From an uncultured virus (IMG/VR IMGVR_UViG_3300025066_000019) (Duplodnaviria; Heunggongvirae; Uroviricota; Caudoviricetes), in the IMG/VR virus record IMGVR_UViG_3300025066_000019: 20,000 bases of DNA. One strand, written 5' to 3'. Positions within the stretch are counted from its first letter, which is position 1. Each line of letters begins with the position of its first letter. Shown piece by piece: positions 681 to 16,462 of the stretch. The notes under the pieces are model-generated. The model was given only the letters and a program-made list of their open reading frames with translations. It searched no databases and was not told where the DNA came from. Position numbers and translations under genes: made by a program.

Positions 681-1231
681 TGAAGAGAGAAACAGTAGCA
701 GAAAATAAATGGATGGGTATGTATCAGATTCTAGATGATAGACCCTATACCTACGCCAGTCGTCGTCCAGTTGGTAAACAACACATGGATGGTGGTCAAA
801 CCGCCGATGCCGTAACCGTGATTGCCTTACATGGTGAAGAGATTGTCTTTATCAAGAATAATAATCGTCCTGTGATTGGTGAGCCCCAGTTGGAACTTCC
901 CGCTGGAATGATTGATGAAGGCGAGACAGTGATGGAGGCAGGTATTCGTGAACTTAAGGAAGAGACCGGATTAACCTTTAATGAAGAAGATAATCCTCTG
1001 GTTATCCCCAAGTGTTTTAAGTCGGCAGGTTTCACTGACGAGAGTACAGGTCTGCTTATCGGCTCTTGTTTTGGAGAACCATCGAAAGAATTCCAAGAAG
1101 ATAATGAAGATATTGATGTTATCATCTGTGGACCACAAGACCTAAAGCGTATCATTGAGGAAGAAGGATGTCAGATGTCTATTTCTGTAGGTATCTTTTA
1201 TGCGATTGCAACTTCTCGATACCCCTCTTGA
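680..1231 (+). CDS. Nudix hydrolase (ADP-ribose pyrophosphatase-like)
   Basis: Nudix box GMIDEGETVMEAGIRELKEETGL preceded by ELPAG, with downstream SAGFTDE and EDIDV as in NudF-type enzymes. Confidence 0.9.
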   Translation: MKRETVAENKWMGMYQILDDRPYTYASRRPVGKQHMDGGQTADAVTVIALHGEEIVFIKNNNRPVIGEPQLELPAGMIDEGETVMEAGIRELKEETGLTFNEEDNPLVIPKCFKSAGFTDESTGLLIGSCFGEPSKEFQEDNEDIDVIICGPQDLKRIIEEEGCQMSISVGIFYAIATSRYPS

Positions 1232-1256
1232 CAAACCAACGACCCTTTGCTATAAT
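1228..1256 (+). promoter_or_regulatory. sigma70-type promoter
   Basis: TTGACA(1228-1233)-N17-TATAAT(1251-1256) with extended TG. Confidence 0.85.
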
Positions 1257-1299
1257 ATTCATATAACAACCTGTGACCTTTAACGAGTGAGGAAACGAA

Positions 1300-1623
1300 A
1301 TGGGCAAGTATGCCGATTCAATCAAAGCTTCGCGGCAACACATGTCGCCACAAAAAATCGCGGAAGAGAAGAACGCGAGGTGTCGGGCACGTAATGCCCA
1401 ACGACGCAAGGAAGTACAGGAGGAAGTTAGTGAGCGATTGCTACACTGGCAGTCTCTTTCTCTTGAGCAACAGTTGGAGCAGTTAGATGCTCGACTGGGG
1501 AAGGACGTGGGGGCTGTTAAGCAGCGAGCCCGCATTCTCCACTCTATCGCTGATAGAGCCAACAAGGCTATTGCCAATGACGAGGCTCGTCGTGCTAAGA
1601 AGAAAAAGAAGAAAAAGAAATGA
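1300..1623 (+). CDS. basic hypothetical protein with poly-Lys tail
   Basis: ORF downstream of the promoter with a GAGG RBS; helical, K/R-rich, ends in 8 Lys. Confidence 0.8.
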   Translation: MGKYADSIKASRQHMSPQKIAEEKNARCRARNAQRRKEVQEEVSERLLHWQSLSLEQQLEQLDARLGKDVGAVKQRARILHSIADRANKAIANDEARRAKKKKKKKK

Positions 1624-1946
1624 GCAAGTGGTATATAACCTCTGGTAGTATCAAGAGCATCATTACGTCTGACCACCCGTTGGACGCTGCTGCTGAGGCA
1701 CTTAGTAAGGCCAAAGAAGGAACCTTTGTAGAGAACTTTATCTATGTTGACCAACGTGGACATAGACCTCTCTCATGTGAACCATGGGCTGACGAGGATG
1801 GTATTCGTCATCCTACTGAAAAGTCTAGTGATGACTTAGTCACTAAGATTGGTGAACAGAATTACTTGGCTCCTCAGTTTGCTTATTCTACAGAAACAGT
1901 ATTTGAAAGGATGGGTTGGAATGCCAAGAGGGACAAAGACCTGTAA
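1620..1946 (+). CDS. hypothetical protein
   Basis: ATGA overlap with the upstream gene; 108-aa ORF. Confidence 0.75.
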   Translation: MSKWYITSGSIKSIITSDHPLDAAAEALSKAKEGTFVENFIYVDQRGHRPLSCEPWADEDGIRHPTEKSSDDLVTKIGEQNYLAPQFAYSTETVFERMGWNAKRDKDL

Positions 1947-2424
1947 AAATCAATCCTGTGGTGCAGCTAATGGCCCAAGGTCATTCTTCTGCAAGGAATG
2001 TGGTGAACCTTTTGTGGTTAAAGGTAAGAAGTCAACGCCAATTATGAAGGCAGCGACCGATACCAATGACTACAAGGAACACTTCGACGAGATTGATTAT
2101 AGCCGAGACGAGTCCAACGTCAGAAACTTTGACGGTACTGCTCGCTGCTGGGTTAGTAAGTGCGGCAAATTCCGCATTAGACAGTACAAGACCTTCCAGG
2201 GTATTGACGTAGGTCATTCTCGACGTACTATTCTGGAGTCTAGGATTGAACACCCCGCTGAGTTCGGGCCTAAGTGGAAGATTGTCTCTCGTCATGTTGT
2301 CTTTAAGTCTGCTGGTCGTCGTTATGTAAGAATGGCACGACAACAAAAGATTAGGAAGACAGCAGAAGAACAACGTCAAGAAAGTTTTAATGCAAGACTG
2401 AGTCATCGTCTAACAAGAAAGTGA
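1921..2424 (+). CDS. zinc-ribbon protein
   Basis: Likely start at ATG 1921 (MPRGTKTCKNQSCG...FCKECG, four Cys); basic C-terminus. Confidence 0.7.
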   Translation: MPRGTKTCKNQSCGAANGPRSFFCKECGEPFVVKGKKSTPIMKAATDTNDYKEHFDEIDYSRDESNVRNFDGTARCWVSKCGKFRIRQYKTFQGIDVGHSRRTILESRIEHPAEFGPKWKIVSRHVVFKSAGRRYVRMARQQKIRKTAEEQRQESFNARLSHRLTRK

Positions 2425-2428
2425 TACC

Positions 2429-2896
2429 ATGTTTAGACCCCTGGTGCTACTATTGTTATTATGTGCTACAGCCTTTTCTTATGACGGGAAGAATGAGAAT
2501 CCCTACGTCGTTAAAGACAACATAGATAAGGTTGAGAGAAACAATTTCTATGACGACGAGGGGAGACTGGTATTTGTCCAGTTTATTTTCTGGGAAGAAA
2601 CCCCTCATTGGCATAGTCGCCCATATAACGTAATGGCCTGGAGGCTAGACAAGGGAATCCCACGTCCTTCTTATATGTATGACACTGGTAGTGTTTATAG
2701 ATATAGAATGATTTGGAATGATGGCGGAACAATGAGAGACATCAGGTGTAAAATCTTTACAGAGACATGGACACAAGAGGATGTAGAGATACTTGAAAGA
2801 GAGTTTTTACCAAAAGAGCATCGGAAGGGGTTATTGAAACTCCGAAAGGCTCGTCCAGAAATACGTATGGAAGATTTACTTCTTCCTCCTAAGTAG
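2429..2896 (+). CDS. secreted hypothetical protein resembling a Planctomycetota conserved family
   Basis: Signal peptide (MFRPLVLLLLLCATAFS); motifs NFYDDEGRLVFVQFIF, AWRL and ETWTQED..ILERE.LP. The family resemblance is from memory. Confidence 0.7.
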   Translation: MFRPLVLLLLLCATAFSYDGKNENPYVVKDNIDKVERNNFYDDEGRLVFVQFIFWEETPHWHSRPYNVMAWRLDKGIPRPSYMYDTGSVYRYRMIWNDGGTMRDIRCKIFTETWTQEDVEILEREFLPKEHRKGLLKLRKARPEIRMEDLLLPPK

Positions 2897-2905
2897 GAAA
2901 ATACC

Positions 2906-3214
2906 ATGGCATTAGACAGACAGGGTGAATGCCCAGAATGTGGAGTCAGTTGGGATGGTGGATGTATCTTCGAAACCTGTATCGCTGAAAATAATTGGCA
3001 AAAACACCACGATACAGAACAAGCGTATATTGCACATCTTAAAGAATTTTACAGTCCGCCGTATCGCTGGGGGAGAATGATTGGTATTCAACTAGGATAC
3101 GACCACCCAAATCATTATGACGGGGTCTCTTACTGGCAATGCCCCGATTGCAAAGCTACCTGGAATCGTTTTACTGAAGAACTTGAGGAAATACCTAGAC
3201 ATGTTAAAGATTGA
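2906..3214 (+). CDS. zinc-finger hypothetical protein
   Basis: CPECG and WQCPDC pairs; AGGA RBS. Confidence 0.8.
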   Translation: MALDRQGECPECGVSWDGGCIFETCIAENNWQKHHDTEQAYIAHLKEFYSPPYRWGRMIGIQLGYDHPNHYDGVSYWQCPDCKATWNRFTEELEEIPRHVKD

Positions 3215-3674
3215 CATTGAACATCTACGACAGAAAGACCTAACAGATGTTTTAGCGATTGAAGAAGAAGCCCATGACTATCCTTGGTCGGCGGGTGACT
3301 TTAATAAACACGCTATGCACCTATCCACTCGACAGTTTACAGCAACAGTAGACGGTGAGATTGTCGGCTATATTGCAATCAATACTGACAGAGAGAGGGT
3401 TAGGACTATTGAGAACATTGCTGTTCGTAAAGACATGAGAAGGAAAGGGATTGCGACATACTTAGTTAAGGAGACATGCGACTTTTTTCCAGAAGAGTTT
3501 GATATTGTTCAGGCAATGGTTAATGAAACCAATGATGTTGCTATTGGATTCTTCAGTAAAGGAATTGGTTGCAAGGCTGTACTAGTTAAAGAACCCTACG
3601 AGGAAATCGACCGAGACGGATACTTATTTTCACGATTCTGGAATGGAGATAGAGAACTTGTCGAGGCAAATTAA
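3201..3674 (+). CDS. GNAT acetyltransferase, RimI-like
   Basis: DLTDVLAIE...PWS, IENIAV...RRKGIA (acetyl-CoA motif A), V.ETN..AI.FF; probable start ATG 3201. Confidence 0.85.
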   Translation: MLKIDIEHLRQKDLTDVLAIEEEAHDYPWSAGDFNKHAMHLSTRQFTATVDGEIVGYIAINTDRERVRTIENIAVRKDMRRKGIATYLVKETCDFFPEEFDIVQAMVNETNDVAIGFFSKGIGCKAVLVKEPYEEIDRDGYLFSRFWNGDRELVEAN

Positions 3675-3713
3675 CATAAAATGTTTTACTTACTTACGGA
3701 GATACTGCTAGAG

Positions 3714-4142
3714 ATGACACCGAAAACGATACCTGTACTTAAACTACAAGAAGATGCCGTACTGCCACACAAAGACGATGGGGACGCTGGCTGGGATTTA
3801 CACTCAACAGAAGACATCAAGTGCCCCTCACAGGACGCTGTTTTAGTTTCCACTGGAATTGCCATGGAAATCCCCGAGAACCACGTTGGTCTTTTATGGG
3901 ACCGCTCAGGGATGGCATCTAAGAAGAAATTTCATCGGATGGCAGGGGTTATCGACTCCTCTTATCGTGGTGAGATTAAAGTCCTACTACAAAACAATAG
4001 TCACTTCACTCAGTACATAGCTGCGGGAGATAAGATTGCTCAGATACTTATTCAGGAAGTGCCAGAGTTTGAAATGAAGGAAGTGAAAGAGTTGAACGAA
4101 ACTAAACGAGGTGATGGCGGTTTCGGCTCTACAGGAGAATAG
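3714..4142 (+). CDS. dut: dUTPase (trimeric)
   Basis: All five motifs present: AGWDL, RSG, GVIDSSYRGE, KIAQ, RGDGGFGSTG. Start is ATG 3714 or 3681. Confidence 0.95.
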   Translation: MTPKTIPVLKLQEDAVLPHKDDGDAGWDLHSTEDIKCPSQDAVLVSTGIAMEIPENHVGLLWDRSGMASKKKFHRMAGVIDSSYRGEIKVLLQNNSHFTQYIAAGDKIAQILIQEVPEFEMKEVKELNETKRGDGGFGSTGE

Positions 4143-4238
4143 GGTGGCGACTGGTGACTGGTGTTGCCCTTGGTCTACAAAACCAATGAGGGGTGCGTAA
4201 ACCGCATCCTTGGTAGGTTCGATTCCTATCCGCCACCG
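4143..4238 (+). tRNA. tRNA-Sec-like (selC-like body) with ACA anticodon
   Basis: GGTGGCG(A)/(C)CGCCACC acceptor, 6-bp D-stem with TGGT loop, anticodon loop CTACAAA, 9-bp variable arm, GTAGG-TTCGATT-CCTAT T-arm, G73. Confidence 0.85.
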
Positions 4239-4239
4239 C

Positions 4240-4268
4240 TTGACGAATGAAGGTTGAGGTGTTAAGAT
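4240..4268 (+). promoter_or_regulatory. sigma70-like promoter, possibly giving a leaderless mRNA
   Basis: TTGACG-N17-TAAGAT with extended TG; ATG at 4274 lies at the expected start site. Confidence 0.5.
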
Positions 4269-4273
4269 AAGAT

Positions 4274-5122
4274 ATGAGAAGAAACAGACTAAACCGAATG
4301 CGTACTTACTTGGTAGGTGCAATGGAATTCGCTCCTGATGGAGGTGTTCAATGGCGAGAAAGAATTACTCCCTGGCTTAATAGTCGAGGTGTATCTGTCT
4401 TTAACCCATGTGATAAGCCCTGTGATGTAGGAAGCGAGAAACCAGAGGATAGGTTGCTGCGACAGGCAATGCTTGCTCGTGGACAGTATGACGAATTCCT
4501 AGATGACGCTGGTCCACTTCGTCCTTACGACCTAAGAATGGTTGATATATCAGATTTCCTGATTGTTCATATTGATACTGACCTTCATGCTTGTGGTACA
4601 TACGAAGAGATTACCACAGCAAACAGACAGAAGAAACCTATCATTATTCATTGTAAGCAAGGCAAGAAGGGTCTTCCTCCTTGGTTGTTTTTGATGCTTG
4701 GTAAGTCTCATGTTACAGTATTTGATTCATGGACAGAGGTTGAGAGCTATCTTGATTATATTAATTCATACGACTCCATTGACCACTTGAAACGTTGGGT
4801 GTTCTTTGATTTAGACAAAGTTGATAAACCTGCTGAGGAGGCGTTTAGAAAACGTCAGTTTAAACTTGATTTTCGTGAAAGGATTAATCCTGTGTATGTT
4901 GGAGCAGAAGCGGATATTGGTGACAAGGTTGTTTATAGTAATGTCAATGCTGGTTACGAAGGTGACCAAGATGATGCTGCTGAACACCTAATCATGAATG
5001 CAGAGTATACTATTTCTTCTGTATTGGTTGAAAAATGGAGTACTCGTATATACCTTGACGAGGCTCCTGGTATTGCCTTTAACAGTGTTATGTTCTCCCC
5101 AGCCTTAGTAGAGGAAGAGTGA
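4274..5122 (+). CDS. nucleoside 2-deoxyribosyltransferase-like protein with an extra C-terminal domain
   Basis: YLVGAM...WRE..., VFNP, DLRMVDISDFLIV, GTYEE (catalytic Glu region), KKPII. Confidence 0.8.
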   Translation: MRRNRLNRMRTYLVGAMEFAPDGGVQWRERITPWLNSRGVSVFNPCDKPCDVGSEKPEDRLLRQAMLARGQYDEFLDDAGPLRPYDLRMVDISDFLIVHIDTDLHACGTYEEITTANRQKKPIIIHCKQGKKGLPPWLFLMLGKSHVTVFDSWTEVESYLDYINSYDSIDHLKRWVFFDLDKVDKPAEEAFRKRQFKLDFRERINPVYVGAEADIGDKVVYSNVNAGYEGDQDDAAEHLIMNAEYTISSVLVEKWSTRIYLDEAPGIAFNSVMFSPALVEEE

Positions 5123-5442
5123 TGCCTTACATAGAACAAGGTAAGCGTTTATATATTGATGACGACATTAACGAACTTAAACGTGGTTTAATTAGCAACT
5201 TCGGTAGTGAAGACATTGAAGGGGCTCTGCATTACGTAATAGCTCAACTCTTAGAGGTTATTCCTCAATCGTCCAGTCTGTCTGGTGAGTGGAGATATAA
5301 ATACATTAATCGTGCGTCAGGAGTGCTAACACAAGTACAAGAGAACTTCGACGAACGTATCGTTAAACCCTATGAACGAATGGCGATGGAAAAGAATGGT
5401 GACATCAGTAGCTATGCAAAGTTTGACGATTCCCGTAAGTAG
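5122..5442 (+). CDS. conserved phage hypothetical protein (MPYI...G.L.Y...PYE....NGD family)
   Basis: Motif pattern typical of a small phage protein often found beside nucleotide-metabolism genes. Confidence 0.75.
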   Translation: MPYIEQGKRLYIDDDINELKRGLISNFGSEDIEGALHYVIAQLLEVIPQSSSLSGEWRYKYINRASGVLTQVQENFDERIVKPYERMAMEKNGDISSYAKFDDSRK

Positions 5443-5701
5443 TCTCGACTGGAAGTTTCTCACCAAGGTAATTCAACAGCTTGGTAGACTGACAGAGGAA
5501 GAGATTGACCCTATAACGTGGCGTAAAGCTTTTAATAAGGTTGGCGTAACATATGGTGGAGACCTTACTCCTCTTGCTGTTAAAGCCGAAGAGAAGCCTT
5601 ATCTACTTATTACATTTACAACCCCTAACCTGAAGACTGTCAAGCAGCGTATTACCTTTAGTGGTGCTTACGAGCCCGTCAGATTCGAGGCACCTCAGTG
5701 A
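5414..5701 (+). CDS. hypothetical protein
   Basis: ORF fills the gap between neighbours; start uncertain (5372, 5393 or 5414). Confidence 0.6.
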   Translation: MQSLTIPVSSLDWKFLTKVIQQLGRLTEEEIDPITWRKAFNKVGVTYGGDLTPLAVKAEEKPYLLITFTTPNLKTVKQRITFSGAYEPVRFEAPQ

Positions 5702-5973
5702 ATATCCTCTTACATGTTCTAGTATTCCTATTTGTGACGTTTATGTACTCAGGTCTGAGTGCTGTTACTGCCTTATGGACAAAACAGGTGGTGAATGGTA
5801 AGGCATGGGGAAGTTTTATGACAGGAAGTTTGTCGAGATTATTAGCATTGGGTGGGTTGTCCTTTGCGTTCTTATTTGAGCAATTCGTCGTAAGTGCTTT
5901 CGTAGGAATGGTTTTGGGCGAGGGATTAGGTTCCTATCTCGTGGTGAAGTACCATATGATTGATAGCAAGTAA
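5698..5973 (+). CDS. small membrane protein (about 3 TM segments)
   Basis: Hydrophobic 91-aa ORF; GTGA overlap with the upstream stop. Confidence 0.7.
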   Translation: MNILLHVLVFLFVTFMYSGLSAVTALWTKQVVNGKAWGSFMTGSLSRLLALGGLSFAFLFEQFVVSAFVGMVLGEGLGSYLVVKYHMIDSK

Positions 5974-6044
5974 TTATCCCTTTTGTGGTCTTTCGGTGTA
6001 TAATACAGTGTAAGACAATTATTCTGTACAGGAGAACAAGAGAC

Positions 6045-8318
6045 ATGCGTAAAATCCTAATGGCTTTCATGCTAGTTCTCGCAATGTCACTCCCTGCTGC
6101 GGCTTACCCACTGAGTTTGAACGAGATTGCACAAGCAACCTGCCGTGTTGGCGTTTCTGGTGCTTCTGGTTCTGGTACTGCTATTCATGAAGATAAGGAC
6201 TATGTGTACATTCTAACCAATGCTCACGTAGTTGGCAACTCTCGGTCGGGTTTAGTTGAGTTTTTCCCAGGAGGTAGGAAAACAGCTAAGATTCCAGCAA
6301 GTGTCATTTGGCGAGAACACCAAGCTAACACAGATGTAGACTTCGCTATTATGAAGGTAGCTAAGAATACATTGTATGGGTACAAGCCTAGGATTATCCC
6401 CCTGGCTCCCTCGTCCTATCAAATCAAAGCAGGTCAATATATTGCTTCGGTTGGACACCCTGCTGCTCGTTGGGCACAGGCGTGGGAAGGTTACGCATTA
6501 AGAGACGGCAGTAGTCGAGTATTATTTACTCCTCCACCTCTGGGTGGACAGTCTGGTTCTGGCATCTTTGTTAATATTGATGGTTATACCTATCTCGGGG
6601 CAGTTCTTACATGGAGAATTGGAAGAGATGGTAGAGACTCAAAGGGTTATGACCTAGCTCAAGGTGGTGCGATTCCATCAAGTACCTTTGATAAGGTGTT
6701 TGGTGGTAAGGTTTCGTATACCCCAGAGAGAACTCCCTATAATTACCGTGAGGTTAAAACCGTAATCACCAAGATTGGTTATGCTAAAGACTCAAATGGT
6801 AAATGCTGGCCGATAACATATTATGACGATGGTAGCTATGAGGCTAAGGTTCCACCAGGAACCCAAATAGTTCAATGGAACTTGAGCCAGTCTCAATGTA
6901 ATCCATTTGGTTCCCGCCCTGGTCCAGGGTTTTTAGATGGAATCAATCCTTTTACTCCTCCTCGTCGTAATCCTCCTAGTCCTAAGCCAGAAGCACCGGC
7001 TCCTCCGTATATTGACCCAGGAAAACCTGATGTTGTTCCTCCTCCATCTATTGGTGGGTTTGGTCATGGCACCCCAGGCAATGGTATTTATGGTAGTCTT
7101 GAAGAGTTGAAGAAGAAGAATGAAGAACTGCTTAATCAGAATAAGGGGTTGTCTAATCAGTTGACAGATGCCCAGAAGGCACTGGATATTGAACGCACTC
7201 ACTTGTCGGCTCTAAAAGACAGTCTTGATGCCGCACAGGCAGACCTTACTATTAAGGACGGTCAGATTAAGAGACTTGAGGGTTCAGTGAAAGACTTATC
7301 TTCCAAAGTGGAAGGTTTAATTAGTCAAATTGGTCTTAAAACTGCTATCATCAACGATAATGCTGGTAAAATTACTGAACTAAAAGATAAAGCTAAGGCT
7401 GATGCAACAGCTTTGGCTACTGCAAAAGGTAACACTGATGTAGTAATAAAGAATAATGTGTCTCTTCAGACCCAGAAAGACCGACTCAAAAATGGATTAT
7501 GGGGCGTGTCTGGGCTAAGTGGCGTATTATTACTAGTGGGGGGATGGTTCTACAGGAAGAAGCTTAGGCCGAAGCTTGATGGAGCCGCAGAGAATATCAT
7601 TGATAAAGTAGAAGACAAGGTTGAAGATAAAATTGGCGGTTATCTTCCAGACGTTATTAAGGATTTTGGAGATGCTAAGCTTCATAATCTGAAAGACAAA
7701 CTGTTTTCGAAAGTTGATGAAAAGCTTAATGCCGAGAAGGAAGAACTTGGTAAGATTGGTGATGTCCTAGGTAAGATTTCAACATTACTAGAGAAGACTG
7801 ACGAAAGAATGACAACGATGGAGACTAAGGTATCCCTTGTTTCTGCCCCTGTCGTTAATGCACCTACTCAGGTAAGTATTGAGATTGAAAACCCTGTAAT
7901 TCCGCCTGCTGACCCTGTCCCTGCTGAAGGGCTTAGACAGTTTGCAGAGTTATGGAAGGCAGAAGGGCAAGACCCCAAGAAATTGGCACTCTATGGTATT
8001 TTGTACCATGAGGCCGTCAACCTGCTTCGTAAGGGGCAGTTATATGTTAAAGGCAACGACCGTACACAGGGTCAGGAAGCCACCGCTAATAAATTGGACG
8101 AGTGGGTAGAGAATCAAATACTTACTCGACCAGCAGATGTTCTCTTGCAAGGTAATGAAGTAATCCACCAAGTAATGGTTGGTCATCTTTACCGTGAGGC
8201 AGTAGAGAAACTTCGAAACGGAGAATTCCCAGTGTTGGGAGCAAAGGAAACTGCTAATATCATCGACAGATGGGTACAGCAGGAAATGCTAAGACGAATG
8301 AACAAATCAGTAAGATAA
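6045..8318 (+). CDS. exported, membrane-anchored trypsin-like serine protease
   Basis: AGGAG RBS before ATG 6045; signal peptide; catalytic triad LTNAHVV, DFAIM, GGQSGSG; then Pro-rich linker, coiled coil and TM (GLWGVSGLSGVLLLVGGWFY-RKK). Confidence 0.85.
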   Translation: MRKILMAFMLVLAMSLPAAAYPLSLNEIAQATCRVGVSGASGSGTAIHEDKDYVYILTNAHVVGNSRSGLVEFFPGGRKTAKIPASVIWREHQANTDVDFAIMKVAKNTLYGYKPRIIPLAPSSYQIKAGQYIASVGHPAARWAQAWEGYALRDGSSRVLFTPPPLGGQSGSGIFVNIDGYTYLGAVLTWRIGRDGRDSKGYDLAQGGAIPSSTFDKVFGGKVSYTPERTPYNYREVKTVITKIGYAKDSNGKCWPITYYDDGSYEAKVPPGTQIVQWNLSQSQCNPFGSRPGPGFLDGINPFTPPRRNPPSPKPEAPAPPYIDPGKPDVVPPPSIGGFGHGTPGNGIYGSLEELKKKNEELLNQNKGLSNQLTDAQKALDIERTHLSALKDSLDAAQADLTIKDGQIKRLEGSVKDLSSKVEGLISQIGLKTAIINDNAGKITELKDKAKADATALATAKGNTDVVIKNNVSLQTQKDRLKNGLWGVSGLSGVLLLVGGWFYRKKLRPKLDGAAENIIDKVEDKVEDKIGGYLPDVIKDFGDAKLHNLKDKLFSKVDEKLNAEKEELGKIGDVLGKISTLLEKTDERMTTMETKVSLVSAPVVNAPTQVSIEIENPVIPPADPVPAEGLRQFAELWKAEGQDPKKLALYGILYHEAVNLLRKGQLYVKGNDRTQGQEATANKLDEWVENQILTRPADVLLQGNEVIHQVMVGHLYREAVEKLRNGEFPVLGAKETANIIDRWVQQEMLRRMNKSVR

Positions 8319-9086: not shown

Positions 9087-9490
9087 GGGCCATCACTGGT
9101 ATCGACTGGATGGATTGAATTGTGAATTGCGTGTCGTGGTTGGTTAGTTGGCCACGTAAAAAGCTAACCGAAAATCTTAATTGCTAACACAAATAAGAAC
9201 GTTATCGCCAATACCATCGCTGGTGTTGCTCCTCGTTTCGAGGGAAATAGCCTAAACGCCACAAGCGTTTCTGCTATCCGTTCCGTAGCTCTGGTTGCGT
9301 AACAAAGCCTTGGTCGGGCTAAACAGACCAAACGTGTCGGCGTTACCGGCCTAGTCCCAACAATGTGTATGAGTGGGTAAAGACATCCATTACACTGACT
9401 TTGTTTGCTGAGTAAGATTCAACAAACTATACACGTAGACGTTTGCGGTACAGACATAACAGGACTCGGGTTCGACTCCCGAATGGTCCA
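9087..9490 (+). ncRNA. ssrA: tmRNA
   Basis: GGGCCAT/ATGGTCC-A acceptor with G3:U70; TCGAC after the D-loop; pk1 (CGTGG..GGTTAG..CCACG..CTAACC); tag ORF 9183-9302 ending ALVA*; 3' GGAC-TCGGG-TTCGACT-CCCGA. Confidence 0.93.
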
Positions 9491-9510
9491 CTTGACAGAA
9501 AAGGTTTGAA

Positions 9511-9774
9511 ATGGTAGAAAAGATGGTAGGCAGAGACGAGTTGAAAGCTTTACTTGCCCAACATCAAATTGACGAGGTTGCGAAAGTTTTACAGCCGAAG
9601 AAAGGTCAGTCGTTAGCTGACAGAGCGAGGGAGCTAGTCTCTAATCGTTACGAGCTAAGTGAATTACATCTTGGTGCAAACGATGATGTTGAGTATTGGA
9701 CTGACAGGTTAGGGGATGCGAAAGCAGACGTTCTTTATTGTCAGTCTCAACTTAATATGTTAGGAATAGAATGA
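9511..9774 (+). CDS. hypothetical protein (paralog of the next gene)
   Basis: Shares VLQPK.GQSL..RA.EL with 9771..10031; start 9511 or 9523. Confidence 0.7.
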   Translation: MVEKMVGRDELKALLAQHQIDEVAKVLQPKKGQSLADRARELVSNRYELSELHLGANDDVEYWTDRLGDAKADVLYCQSQLNMLGIE

Positions 9775-10031
9775 CGGTTCATCATACAGGTTGCGAAAGA
9801 CATACTAAATTGACAAGTAGTCATCCCATATGCGTTATGTGTGTTTTGAATGAAGTAGCAAGGCTTGAAGGAATACTTGAACAACTTAAGTTTGTTTTAC
9901 AGCCGAAAGAAGGGCAGTCGCTACCACAAAGGGCGAATGAGCTAAGAGACCAGCTAGTAAATGCAGAAACGGATGCTGAATATTACAAAGCAAAATACAA
10001 TGGCACTTGGCCTGAAGGAGATGACGAATGA
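9771..10031 (+). CDS. hypothetical protein
   Basis: ATGA overlaps at both ends; Cys/His-rich N-terminus. Confidence 0.75.
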   Translation: MTVHHTGCERHTKLTSSHPICVMCVLNEVARLEGILEQLKFVLQPKEGQSLPQRANELRDQLVNAETDAEYYKAKYNGTWPEGDDE

Positions 10032-10456
10032 AGAAGTTAGTCTTAGCGATGATGTTGATGGTGACACTTTGCCTTGTCGGCTGTAAAGGTTCGATTGGGT
10101 TTAAGTTTAATTCTAATCTCCACGCTGCTCCGATTGAACAAGCAGAGAATAGGGTTACAACCTTCCTTTATTTTGGTGCTGACTGGTGCCACTACTGTAA
10201 GGTAATGAAAAGCACAACCTTTGCTAATAAAGAAGTTCAAAAAGAAATTGAGAAGCTGAGGTCTTTTAGACATGAAGGAAAGACTGTTGCGGAACAGGCA
10301 GTCTACAAGAAGTATAAAGTCACTGCGTTGCCCACTGTGATGGTGGGTTATTACAACAATGATAAAAAGTGGGTTGAAGTTGACCGCTATGCTGGTTATG
10401 TCGGCCCTGAGAGTTTTTTGAAGTGGCTACGTAAGCATACAAAGAAACCTTCCTAG
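10028..10456 (+). CDS. thioredoxin-family lipoprotein
   Basis: Lipobox LVGC; FGADWCHYC active site; cis-Pro motif ALPT. Confidence 0.88.
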   Translation: MKKLVLAMMLMVTLCLVGCKGSIGFKFNSNLHAAPIEQAENRVTTFLYFGADWCHYCKVMKSTTFANKEVQKEIEKLRSFRHEGKTVAEQAVYKKYKVTALPTVMVGYYNNDKKWVEVDRYAGYVGPESFLKWLRKHTKKPS

Positions 10457-11151: not shown

Positions 11152-11247
11152 CAAGCAGTTGTCCGCTGATGGTCGCGGTGCTAGTCTTGGAAACTAGAGC
11201 CTGTAAGCCGAACTTACGGGTCGGAGGTTCGATTCCTCTCTGCTTGA
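11152..11247 (+). tRNA. tRNA with Pro(TGG) anticodon and a long variable arm
   Basis: CAAGCAG/CTGCTTG-A, CTAGT-CTTGGAA-ACTAG, 9-bp V-arm GCCTGTAAG/CTTACGGGT, TTCGATT T-loop. Confidence 0.85.
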
Positions 11248-11277
11248 CTTGATTTTTTACACTAATAGGAAAAAGAT

Positions 11278-11602: not shown

Positions 11603-12463
11603 ATGGGTTACCTACATATTAATAACCTGTACAAGGACCAGGACATCTTGATGTTTAAAGAGTGTTACGCACTCGAAAAGATTCATGGTACTTCTGCTCA
11701 TATAAAGTACAAAACAGAGACAGGTATTACCTTCTTCTCTGGTGGCGAAAAGCACGCTAGGTTCGTAGAACTGTTTGACGTAGAAGGGCTCACTGAGAAA
11801 CTCAGAGCATTCGGCGTTGAAGAGATTACTATTTTTGGCGAGGCATACGGTGGCAAATGCCTGGGTATGTCTGGCACTTATGGTAAGGAATTAAAATTTG
11901 TAGCCTTCGATGTTAAGATTGATGACTGCTGGTTAGACGTTCCTAAAGCCGAAGCGATTGTGTTGGAGTTAGGCCTCGAATTCGTTTGGTATGTTAGGTG
12001 TATCACCGACATTGACAAATTGGACTTAGAATGCTATGCTGAGTCAAAGCAGGCTATTCGTAACGGAATGGGTCCAGGCAAGAAGATGGAAGGTGTTGTC
12101 CTTCGTCCTATTGTTGAGTTAACCAAAAACAATGGTAGTAGAGTCATTGTTAAACATAAGAGAGACGACTTCAGTGAGACGAAGACCCCTAGGGTTGTTA
12201 GTCCTGAAAAGTTGAAGATATTGTCAGATGCCAAAGAGGTAGCCGAAGAGTGGGTCACCCCAATGAGGCTAAATCACGTACTCGATAAGATTGAGGGTGG
12301 TGCTTCTATGGAGAAAATGAGAACTATCATCTCAGCTATGATTGAAGACGTAAAGCGTGAAGGTGAAGGAGAGATTGAGTGGTCACAGACTGTTGCCAAA
12401 GCGATTGGTAAGGCAACTGCCGTAATGACTAAGCAATACTTCCAGAATAAACTTCATGCGTAA
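11603..12463 (+). CDS. RNA ligase, Rnl2 family
   Basis: Nucleotidyltransferase motifs I (EKIHGT), III (FGE), IIIa (FVAFD), IV (EGVVLRP) and V (VKHK), plus an Rnl2-like C-terminal domain. Confidence 0.9.
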   Translation: MGYLHINNLYKDQDILMFKECYALEKIHGTSAHIKYKTETGITFFSGGEKHARFVELFDVEGLTEKLRAFGVEEITIFGEAYGGKCLGMSGTYGKELKFVAFDVKIDDCWLDVPKAEAIVLELGLEFVWYVRCITDIDKLDLECYAESKQAIRNGMGPGKKMEGVVLRPIVELTKNNGSRVIVKHKRDDFSETKTPRVVSPEKLKILSDAKEVAEEWVTPMRLNHVLDKIEGGASMEKMRTIISAMIEDVKREGEGEIEWSQTVAKAIGKATAVMTKQYFQNKLHA

Positions 12464-13038: not shown

Positions 13039-13112
13039 AGGCCGTACTTAAAGCACTGGGTGCAATGCAATCTCCAAAGTTGTAATAAGGGGTTCGATTC
13101 CTCTGCGGCCTG
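13039..13112 (+). tRNA. tRNA-Trp(CCA) with an atypical D-arm
   Basis: AGGCCGT/GCGGCCT-G, GCAAT-CTCCAAA-GTTGT, TTCGATT T-loop. Confidence 0.8.
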
Positions 13113-13777: not shown

Positions 13778-14134
13778 ATGAACTGTAAGTGTGGACGTGA
13801 GTTTACAGCCGATGACATTGAGCAGATGGCAGAGGGTTCGTTGACAGAATGCCCCAGGTGTTCTACCCCATATGAGGTAATAACCACTCATGGTTCTGAT
13901 GCTGTCCTTCCTAATAGTATAGACTTTGATGTCTCCTCATTATTTAAGGACGACGTTGATATACTTGGGGAAGTGAGAGAGGTCACCAAGCAGTTGTTTA
14001 ACAAGTATGGGTATGACCCAGATGACTTTATCGTTGATATTAGATGGAGAGTCAAAGATTTGGAGACTGAGGGTAAGTACATAACCGAAAAAATTGAGGG
14101 GGTTAGTATGAGTCACGTTAGGTTTGAGAAATGA
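13778..14134 (+). CDS. hypothetical protein with N-terminal zinc ribbon
   Basis: CKCG...CPRC. Confidence 0.75.
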   Translation: MNCKCGREFTADDIEQMAEGSLTECPRCSTPYEVITTHGSDAVLPNSIDFDVSSLFKDDVDILGEVREVTKQLFNKYGYDPDDFIVDIRWRVKDLETEGKYITEKIEGVSMSHVRFEK

Positions 14135-14204
14135 CTGGTTGGTCGAGTGGTAAGGCAGTAGGTTGCAACCCTACTTTACGCCGGTTCGAATCCGGCACCA
14201 GTCT
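14133..14204 (+). tRNA. tRNA-Cys(GCA)
   Basis: GACTGGT/ACCAGTC-T (U73), GTAGG-TTGCAAC-CCTAC, GCCGG-TTCGAAT-CCGGC. Confidence 0.92.
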
Positions 14205-14218
14205 CTAAAGGAAGTGAC

Positions 14219-16079: not shown

Positions 16080-16170
16080 GGTAGGTACGCTATTGGTTAA
16101 GTAAATTACTCTTGTTCGCAAGTGTTCTTGTGGCTACAGGCCATTGCAGGTTCGAATCCTGCACCTACCT
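16080..16170 (+). tRNA. tRNA-like RNA lacking a canonical anticodon loop
   Basis: Perfect GGTAGGT/ACCTACC acceptor and GCAGG-TTCGAAT-CCTGC T-arm; anticodon arm ends in CTTG-TTCG-CAAG; variable arm GTGGC/GCCAT. Confidence 0.7.
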
Positions 16171-16384: not shown

Positions 16385-16460
16385 GTGGTCTTGGTTACTG
16401 GTCTGGTGACAGTGCTTGATTGAAGTCCAAGAAAGTTCGGTTCGATTCCGAAAGGCCACG
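16385..16460 (+). tRNA. tRNA-Phe(GAA)
   Basis: GTGGTCT/AGGCCAC-G, loop TTGAAGT, TTCGG-TTCGATT-CCGAA; enlarged D region. Confidence 0.8.
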
Positions 16461-16462
16461 CT

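Follow-up and report, generated by a model that had tools for sequence, protein, structure and literature searches.

A selenocysteine-type tRNA gene with the anticodon ACA in an uncultured, barely sampled phage

Very few bacteria are known to have selenocysteine (Sec) tRNAs with sense anticodons, and phage-borne Sec tRNAs have so far been a footnote without an assigned role. The closest described case is Aeromonas salmonicida, whose tRNA-Sec is annotated, after Mukai et al. 2016, with the anticodon ACA, pairing with the cysteine codon UGU (accessible parts of PMC5756416 and PMC10573291); its acceptor domain is given there as 12 bp (PMC10573291). According to reviews, a selenocysteine insertion sequence (SECIS) directs recoding at UAG, at UAA, and at ten sense codons, one of which is Cys UGU in A. 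salmonicida (PMC10778597, PMC8124441), although a further review assigns GCA/UGC to Aeromonas instead (PMC11415595). As for phages, a tRNA-SeC was predicted by tRNAscan-SE in Basilisk-like Bacillus phages and, in the available portion of PMC6145125, is described as the first such phage gene and one of unknown significance. Here, we describe a Sec-type tRNA gene with the anticodon ACA at positions 4143–4238 of a 20,000-nt stretch of DNA (hereafter, the window) from an uncultured virus of the Caudoviricetes (IMG/VR record IMGVR_UViG_3300025066_000019). All features given below lie on the + strand.

The Aeromonas tRNA and the window tRNA, likened by description only, are both of the Sec type and have the same anticodon and the same pairing with UGU, and sense-codon Sec insertion is reported to be SECIS-dependent. 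The Aeromonas gene is chromosomal, is accompanied by the full Sec machinery, and has the 12-bp domain, whereas the window gene is phage-borne, has 13 positions in the corresponding helix, and has no sel genes or target visible in the window. ACA on a Sec tRNA is thus already known, as a rare variant recorded to date in a few Aeromonas bacteria only, and the combination of a phage and ACA is new: in the literature searched, we found no report of a phage tRNA-Sec with a sense anticodon. The initial annotation, made from the sequence alone, had aptly pointed to the natural selC variants with sense anticodons reported by Mukai and colleagues; it had also treated ACA as rare, and given the A. salmonicida entry, the anticodon is less unprecedented than was assumed.

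Other Sec-shaped tRNAs bear on the identity of this RNA. The accessible part of PMC5389517 describes allo-tRNAs, (8/4) tRNA-Ser/His in phage tRNA clusters, and selC* tRNA-Cys. In both the allo-tRNAs and the (8/4) tRNA-Ser/His, the D stem is Sec-like and closed by a tetraloop, the variable arm is long, position 73 is G or U, and the anticodon is mismatched to the amino acid; these tRNAs are defined by a 12-bp acceptor branch of the 8/4 or 9/3 type, whereas the favored folds of the window tRNA have 13 positions. The selC* tRNA-Cys and tRNAReC (PMC5389517 and the available text of PMC7609411) are likewise Sec-shaped and linked to Cys decoding; these are charged by CysRS and have U73 with GCA or UCA, whereas G73 and ACA set the window tRNA apart from them. 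Since its discriminator is G73 rather than U73 and its wobble base is A34, a Cys identity would not be expected.

The Rfam tRNA-Sec model (RF01852) matches positions 4143–4237 over its full length (model positions 1–91) with 68.9 bits (cmscan, E = 1.7e-12), the gathering score of this family being 47 bits. The gene spans 96 nt including the discriminator G4238, and its minimum free energy (MFE) fold is a cloverleaf of −43.2 kcal/mol, compared to −28.7 ± 3.4 kcal/mol for 200 dinucleotide-preserving shuffles (z = −4.27), none of which was as stable (0/200). In this fold, the 5′ strand of the acceptor stem (4143–4150) pairs through its positions 1–7 with the 3′ strand at 4231–4237. The D arm (4153–4168) has a 6-bp stem, GGTGAC/GTTGCC, with two G·U pairs and a 4-nt loop, TGGT. 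It is followed by the anticodon arm (4169–4187), which consists of 5 bp plus a C27·U mismatch at the sixth position and the 7-nt loop CTACAAA, in which the anticodon ACA (4177–4179) is the complement of the Cys codon UGU. The variable arm (4189–4211) forms a 9-bp stem with a 5-nt loop, and the T arm (4212–4230) reads GTAGG/CCTAT around the loop TTCGATT. A C-T trailer (4239–4240) lies directly 3′ of G4238, and CCA is not encoded.

These results confirm that 4143–4238 is a real Sec-type tRNA gene, with the anatomy and the ACA anticodon that the initial annotation had read from the letters. The covariance score, the 13-position acceptor/T domain, the shape of the D arm, and the long variable arm with G73 all agree with bacterial tRNA-Sec, and a single textbook selC feature is absent, namely the anticodon UCA, here replaced by ACA. 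With a Sec-type body and a sense-codon anticodon, the tRNA matches the sense-codon tRNA-Sec class in its features. ARAGORN made no call for a tRNA-Sec gene at this position, though it called 17 other tRNAs in the window; even if the gene is an inert passenger, it illustrates that standard tRNA finders miss Sec-type genes without a UCA anticodon.

The acceptor and T stems stack into a helix of 13 positions, and how these divide between the two stems depends on the junction. In the MFE fold, the split is 7/6 with 13 pairs (−43.2 kcal/mol), G4212-C4230 serving as a possible sixth T-stem pair. In the 8/5 reading, A8 (4150) stands opposite C88 (4230), forming an A·C mismatch, and with this mismatch left open, the fold has −41.1 kcal/mol, 2.1 kcal/mol above the MFE. 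A 12-bp fold of the 8/4 type, in which C88 is bulged out as the Rfam alignment implies, lies 6.4 kcal/mol above the MFE. Both the 8/5 and the 7/6 splits would give 13 positions, and either may be the one used.

The anticodon itself is supported by a second assembly. An independent metagenome contig (L172), found with a search pattern that combined the D arm and T loop of the window tRNA, aligns without gaps to window positions 1151–7226 at 99.36% identity. The two differ at 39 of 6,076 positions, and the tRNA is identical at 96 of 96 positions, ACA included. Since two assemblies of two slightly different strains agree on ACA, an assembly error, which the initial annotation had listed as one way in which its reading could fail, is unlikely, and at least one phage population truly carries ACA. 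For the other concern raised there, a private mutation, the outcome is different: L172 also carries ACA, while the more distant relatives found all have TCA, as detailed below, so that a change private to one lineage is a plausible account. As a side observation, 35 of the 39 differences fall in 4744–5095, the C-terminal third of the open reading frame (ORF) at 4274–5122, which is thus a hypervariable protein end between the window and L172. A diversity-generating retroelement (DGR) was considered as the source of this variability and is not supported, no template-like repeat being present within the window.

The D-arm/T-loop pattern matched 33 copies at 32 loci (16 in species genomes and 16 in metagenomes), L172 among them. 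The named copies sharing the D arm come from metagenome-assembled genomes (MAGs) of Planctomycetota (Phycisphaerae, Pirellulales, Anaerohalosphaeraceae), Thermaerobacter/Bacillota, and Gemmatimonadota, and the cellular ones are ordinary 8/5 selC genes. They have in common with the phage tRNA the D arm (18/18 pattern bases), the C-U linker, the C27·U mismatch, G49·U65, the T loop, G73, and the overall 8/5-type layout. They differ from it in having UCA and an A-U eighth acceptor pair in place of ACA and A·C, and the phage tRNA has a longer variable arm (9 bp), does not encode CCA, and is located in a phage operon. Outside the columns forced by the pattern, identity to the phage tRNA is 71% for Planctomycete, 67% for Thermaerobacter, and about 62% for viral copies. 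A pattern for class-II tRNAs with ACA found none in 401 sampled Planctomycetota genomes.

Compared to the nearest cellular selC (L154; 77 of 97 aligned columns identical, 48 of 68 outside the pattern-fixed columns), the phage tRNA has three stem pairs that are changed on both sides and still paired: acceptor pair 3 (A-U to U-A), anticodon-stem pair 2 (C-G to U-A), and T-stem pair 3 (G-C to A-U). One further U·G has become C-G, and one pair, the eighth of the acceptor stem, is lost (A-U to A·C). Because the three double changes keep the pairing, the stems follow the pattern of an RNA under structural selection, which argues against a decaying copy.

Viruses also carry tRNA-Sec in the UCA form. 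A loop-based scan returned 22 viral loci, and when five of these were checked with Rfam, four scored 68–74 bits and the fifth, clipped by a contig end, 46.9 bits. They include a phage-borne tRNA-Sec(UCA) family in IMG/VR (L283–L289, records G001–G005; L300–L315) that scores 68–74 bits and in which tRNA-Ala follows directly 3′ and tRNA-Glu and tRNA-Thr lie nearby. The fragments carrying it also encode a gp25 baseplate gene and QueD/QueE/FolE/TGT-like (7-deazaguanine) genes, and their CheckV completeness of 3–18% implies large phage genomes; no sel genes are present in the parts of these fragments seen. Over a 29-nt stretch of the T arm and 3′ acceptor strand, this family is 93% identical to the window tRNA. 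Like the latter, it has an MFE fold of the 7/6 type with C66 facing a mismatch, does not encode CCA, and adjoins other tRNAs; it differs in having UCA rather than ACA, and its fragments have no detectable protein similarity to the window.

Given this anatomy, our tentative preference, held at a little below an even chance, is that the tRNA would be charged by seryl-tRNA synthetase (SerRS), converted by SelA, and used by SelB for SECIS-dependent insertion of Sec at selected UGU codons, which is the most likely mechanism among those considered. The initial annotation had listed Sec at UGU among its options; this option has a direct precedent in Aeromonas, while the absence of matches to SelA, SelB, or SelD among the 40 window ORFs scanned and of a standout SECIS counts against it. 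Charging, conversion, dependence on SelB, and the existence of targets are steps that we infer from the anatomy together with this precedent. An Aeromonas-like reading is the most economical one because the shape features for SerRS, SelA, and SelB are all present and a Cys identity is not expected.

In such a scheme, a large, poorly sampled phage would carry an intact selC-type tRNA in which the wobble A replaces U, so that ACA would read UGU. The transcript would be excised from the operon of the upstream dUTPase gene, and CCA would then be added. The host SerRS would charge the tRNA with serine by virtue of its long variable arm and G73, and SelA would convert the serine to selenocysteine, recognizing the 6-bp D stem and 4-nt loop; in the accessible text of PMC7609411, the long variable arm is the feature for SerRS and the 6-bp/4-nt D arm the feature for SelA, by shape and not by sequence. 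The 13-position acceptor/T helix would exclude the tRNA from EF-Tu and leave it to SelB, as the same portion of PMC7609411 names the longer acceptor, or 13-bp domain, as a determinant for SelB and against EF-Tu, whose binding it reportedly weakens about 100-fold. The tRNA would act only at UGU codons with a SECIS hairpin downstream, in phage or host genes, and all other UGU codons, as well as the target sites when selenium is scarce, would be read as Cys by the normal tRNA-Cys. Unmodified A34 should restrict the tRNA to UGU, judging from an E. coli experiment in which ACA in a loop identical to that of tRNA-Arg2 reads UGU (3.6% reassignment), with UGC below detection and no inosine found by cDNA sequencing (available part of PMC11066159). 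The broader proposition, that a phage-supplied UGU-reading Sec tRNA switches selected Cys codons with a SelB-binding hairpin downstream, in phage or host genes, to Sec during infection, we regard as possible, if on the whole rather doubtful.

Several observations weigh against this Sec-at-UGU reading. None of the 40 window ORFs scanned matches a SelA, SelB, SelD, or deaminase family; the window is 20 kb of a probably much larger phage genome, so absences within it carry little weight either way. A 593-aa ORF was considered as hidden Sec machinery and set aside, as it falls into a family of viral hypothetical proteins that is unconnected with SelA or SelB. The window ORFs contain 93 Cys codons (67 TGT and 26 TGC, UGU being the commoner), and when the 45 nt 3′ of each were folded and compared with an ORF background, no SECIS-like hairpin stood out: the strongest folds, at −15.9, −15.8, and −15.5 kcal/mol against a 1st percentile of the background of −15.6 kcal/mol, are at about chance level. 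The best TGT site (6897) is followed by a hairpin with an apical G-U-C loop, and it encodes a lone Cys in the Pro-rich linker of a 777-aa protein. The active-site codons of a thioredoxin-like lipoprotein (WCHYC, TGC..TGT) are outside the 15 strongest downstream folds listed. Within the tRNA, the eighth acceptor pair of the 8/5 split is the A·C mismatch. The relatives speak in the same direction. The anticodon is TCA in all 32 D-arm copies besides L172, and a scan for the 3′ end shared by the phage tRNA-Sec(UCA) family gave 16 loci, of which all 15 readable ones have C-U-U-C-A-A, i.e., UCA. Among class-II-shaped viral tRNAs with a non-T wobble base, ACA occurs at 0 of 74 loci. As such, ACA is known from one phage population only, with TCA in every more distant relative found, and the window and L172 are so nearly identical that long-term conservation of ACA is not readable from the pair.

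The 74 loci of the last scan (L179–L252 in IMG/VR) comprise 39 with CCA (Trp) and 35 with GCA (Cys). Many are on contigs of 100–550 kb, and U73 is present in part of the Cys group; normally class-I tRNAs with a long variable arm seem to recur in large phages. A tRNA-Cys with an extended variable arm of this kind was considered as the identity of the window tRNA and rejected, since those tRNAs have U73 and ordinary D arms.

The uniformity of TCA outside the population (the 32 D-arm copies and the 15/15 readable members of the other phage family) is also what would be expected if the phage had acquired a selC-type tRNA in which a lineage-private U34-to-A change abolished UGA reading, leaving an RNA that is made and has neither a target nor a role. 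The lack of sel genes and SECIS-like signals in the window fits such a neutral passenger as well, and with two nearly identical assemblies, conservation of ACA over evolutionary time is not demonstrated. We nevertheless consider it unlikely, given the intact cloverleaf, in which three pairs differ on both sides from the nearest cellular selC and still pair, the 3′-end signature that the gene has in common with the phage's other tRNAs (see below), and the functional use of ACA in Aeromonas according to the accessible parts of PMC5756416 and PMC10573291. An RNA with no part in translation would be a different matter: it could sequester SelA, SelB, SerRS, or a host anticodon nuclease as a decoy or sponge, yield tRNA fragments, or act as a selC-related recombination site. 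The heavy investment of the phage in tRNA biology (17 ARAGORN tRNAs, a transfer-messenger RNA [tmRNA], and an RNA ligase within the tRNA cluster) would suit an anti-defense role. In addition, selC is known as a gene that integration targets, and it stands at the end of several viral contigs, as judged by its position in them. However, the window has no integrase or nuclease match, the tRNA is complete rather than a half-site, and its acceptor strands are unlike those of every cellular selC found, so that integration would not rebuild the host gene; nothing specific indicates a decoy either, and we find this group of roles quite improbable.

A translational role could also take other forms. Charged by SerRS, left unconverted, and accepted by EF-Tu, the tRNA would place Ser at UGU codons generally, as the Ser-accepting allo-tRNAs do. 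G73 and the long variable arm suit SerRS, Ser insertion in E. coli is described for allo-tRNAs with 35 different anticodons (available text of PMC5389517), and the A·C mismatch might make the helix looser where the acceptor and T stems meet. Yet both favored folds have 13 helix positions as opposed to the 12 of allo-tRNAs, the 12-bp fold is the one 6.4 kcal/mol worse, the longer acceptor is reported to weaken EF-Tu binding by the factor of about 100 cited above from PMC7609411, and a general Cys-to-Ser swap would harm the Cys-rich zinc-ribbon proteins of the phage itself. We therefore attach only a small probability to general Ser insertion. The last reading considered, modification of A34 to inosine (I34), had been raised by the initial annotation; the tRNA would then read UGU, UGC, and UGA and could still serve UGA/SECIS selenoprotein genes. 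Its loop, C-U-A-C-A-A-A, differs at position 36 only from that of tRNA-Arg(ACG), taking the tRNA-Arg2 loop as given in PMC11066159. That single position is the A that replaces G36 of the TadA-type loop U33-A34-C35-G36, and the E. coli ACA tRNA, placed in a loop identical to that of tRNA-Arg2, read UGU only, acquired no inosine, and did not detectably read UGC, TadA being described as very specific in the accessible part of the same source. With no deaminase family match in the 40 window ORFs, decoding through inosine is disfavored and, in our estimate, extremely unlikely.

A phage copy directed at a Cys codon would be the first hint of a virus re-targeting Sec insertion, or at least an indication that the ACA/UGU solution arose more than once. 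If the phage does switch Cys codons during infection, the recoding of a sense codon would be virus-driven and conditional, with a harmless return to Cys wherever the tRNA or selenium is lacking. The gene also provides code engineering with a natural Sec tRNA of compact form, with 13 helix positions and a sense anticodon.

The window as a whole is phage-like, with genes densely packed on one strand and a G+C content of 43%, and this gene content bears out the phage context assumed at the outset. Immediately upstream of the tRNA is the dUTPase gene (3681–4142; Pfam PF00692, 1.4e-29; phrog_135, 1.8e-50), whose stop codon abuts the first tRNA base. Downstream, the 282-aa ORF at 4274–5122 starts 35 nt 3′ of the tRNA and has weak N-terminal matches of the nucleoside 2-deoxyribosyltransferase type. 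A promoter/terminator scan around the tRNA gave no signal stronger than expected from shuffling; a promoter-like site is present at 4240–4268, just 3′ of the tRNA.

The 17 ARAGORN tRNAs of the window are clustered, and among them is the separate, ordinary tRNA-Cys(GCA) noted in the initial annotation, which both ARAGORN and Rfam (60.2 bits) recognize at 14133–14205 within the phage tRNA cluster and which has U73. All 17, together with the Sec-type tRNA, continue as N73-C-T at the 3′ end, and none encodes CCA. The uniform N73-C-T is a 3′ processing signature that the Sec-type gene has in common with the working tRNA set of the phage. The tRNA-Ser(UGA) of the phage has G73, matching that of the Sec-type tRNA. 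A Rnl2-like RNA ligase gene (11603–12463; Pfam PF09414, phrog_548) is located inside the cluster, which suggests tRNA repair. The tmRNA gene (9087–9493) is recognized over its full length by Rfam RF00023 with 103.1 bits and was missed by ARAGORN. The thioredoxin-like lipoprotein gene (10028–10456) encodes the lipobox LVGC ahead of its WCHYC active site.

The phage lineage is barely sampled. Blastn searches with the locus and with the tRNA alone returned nothing relevant among cultured phages, tblastn with the 777-aa ORF gave no match, and the dUTPase search gave distant matches only, below 60% identity. The sole link found is through the RNA ligase, which shares 50.9% identity with a ligase of the 485-kb uncultured phage LR745208.1; in that genome, no tRNA-Sec scores above threshold, and the top match (44 bits) is a tRNA-Ser. 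In IMG/VR, patterns for the anticodon arm (at least 118 loci), the D arm (28 loci), and the D arm with the T loop (0 loci) yielded no relative of the tRNA among the matches listed, and protein-anchored searches with the dUTPase and the 777-aa ORF gave no relatives. The thioredoxin-like lipoprotein has a single homologue in a billion-scale protein set, 96% identical and located on a 555-nt contig. With respect to the host, the window tmRNA had no match in the five MAGs carrying the most similar selC, nor in E. coli genomes.

Other tRNA-like genes of the window were recorded alongside these searches. A 97-nt tRNA at 11152–11248 has the anticodon UGG (Pro), with C1:G72 and A73 as in tRNA-Pro, yet a class-II-like variable arm of 9 bp; ARAGORN calls it tRNA-Pro, and its best Rfam match is tRNA-Sec at a sub-threshold 32.9 bits. 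A tRNA-like gene of 71 nt at 13040–13110, with the loop CUCCAAA (anticodon CCA), also has tRNA-Sec as its best match (28.4 bits), and another of 91 nt at 16080–16170 has a variable arm, a tetraloop-like anticodon region, and an Rfam tRNA score of 23.3 bits; both were missed by ARAGORN. Conversely, the ARAGORN "tRNA-Asn(ATT)" at 16385–16461 combines a good acceptor stem and T arm with a poor anticodon arm (G33 or a 9-nt loop) and has no Rfam tRNA match at E ≤ 1; by its sequence, it appears to be a doubtful or degenerate tRNA, so that a second A34 tRNA in the phage is not established. Finally, a 51-nt direct repeat with 78% identity (9586–9636 and 9894–9944) lies in the adjacent small ORFs at 9511–9774 and 9771–10031, which are probably paralogous genes.

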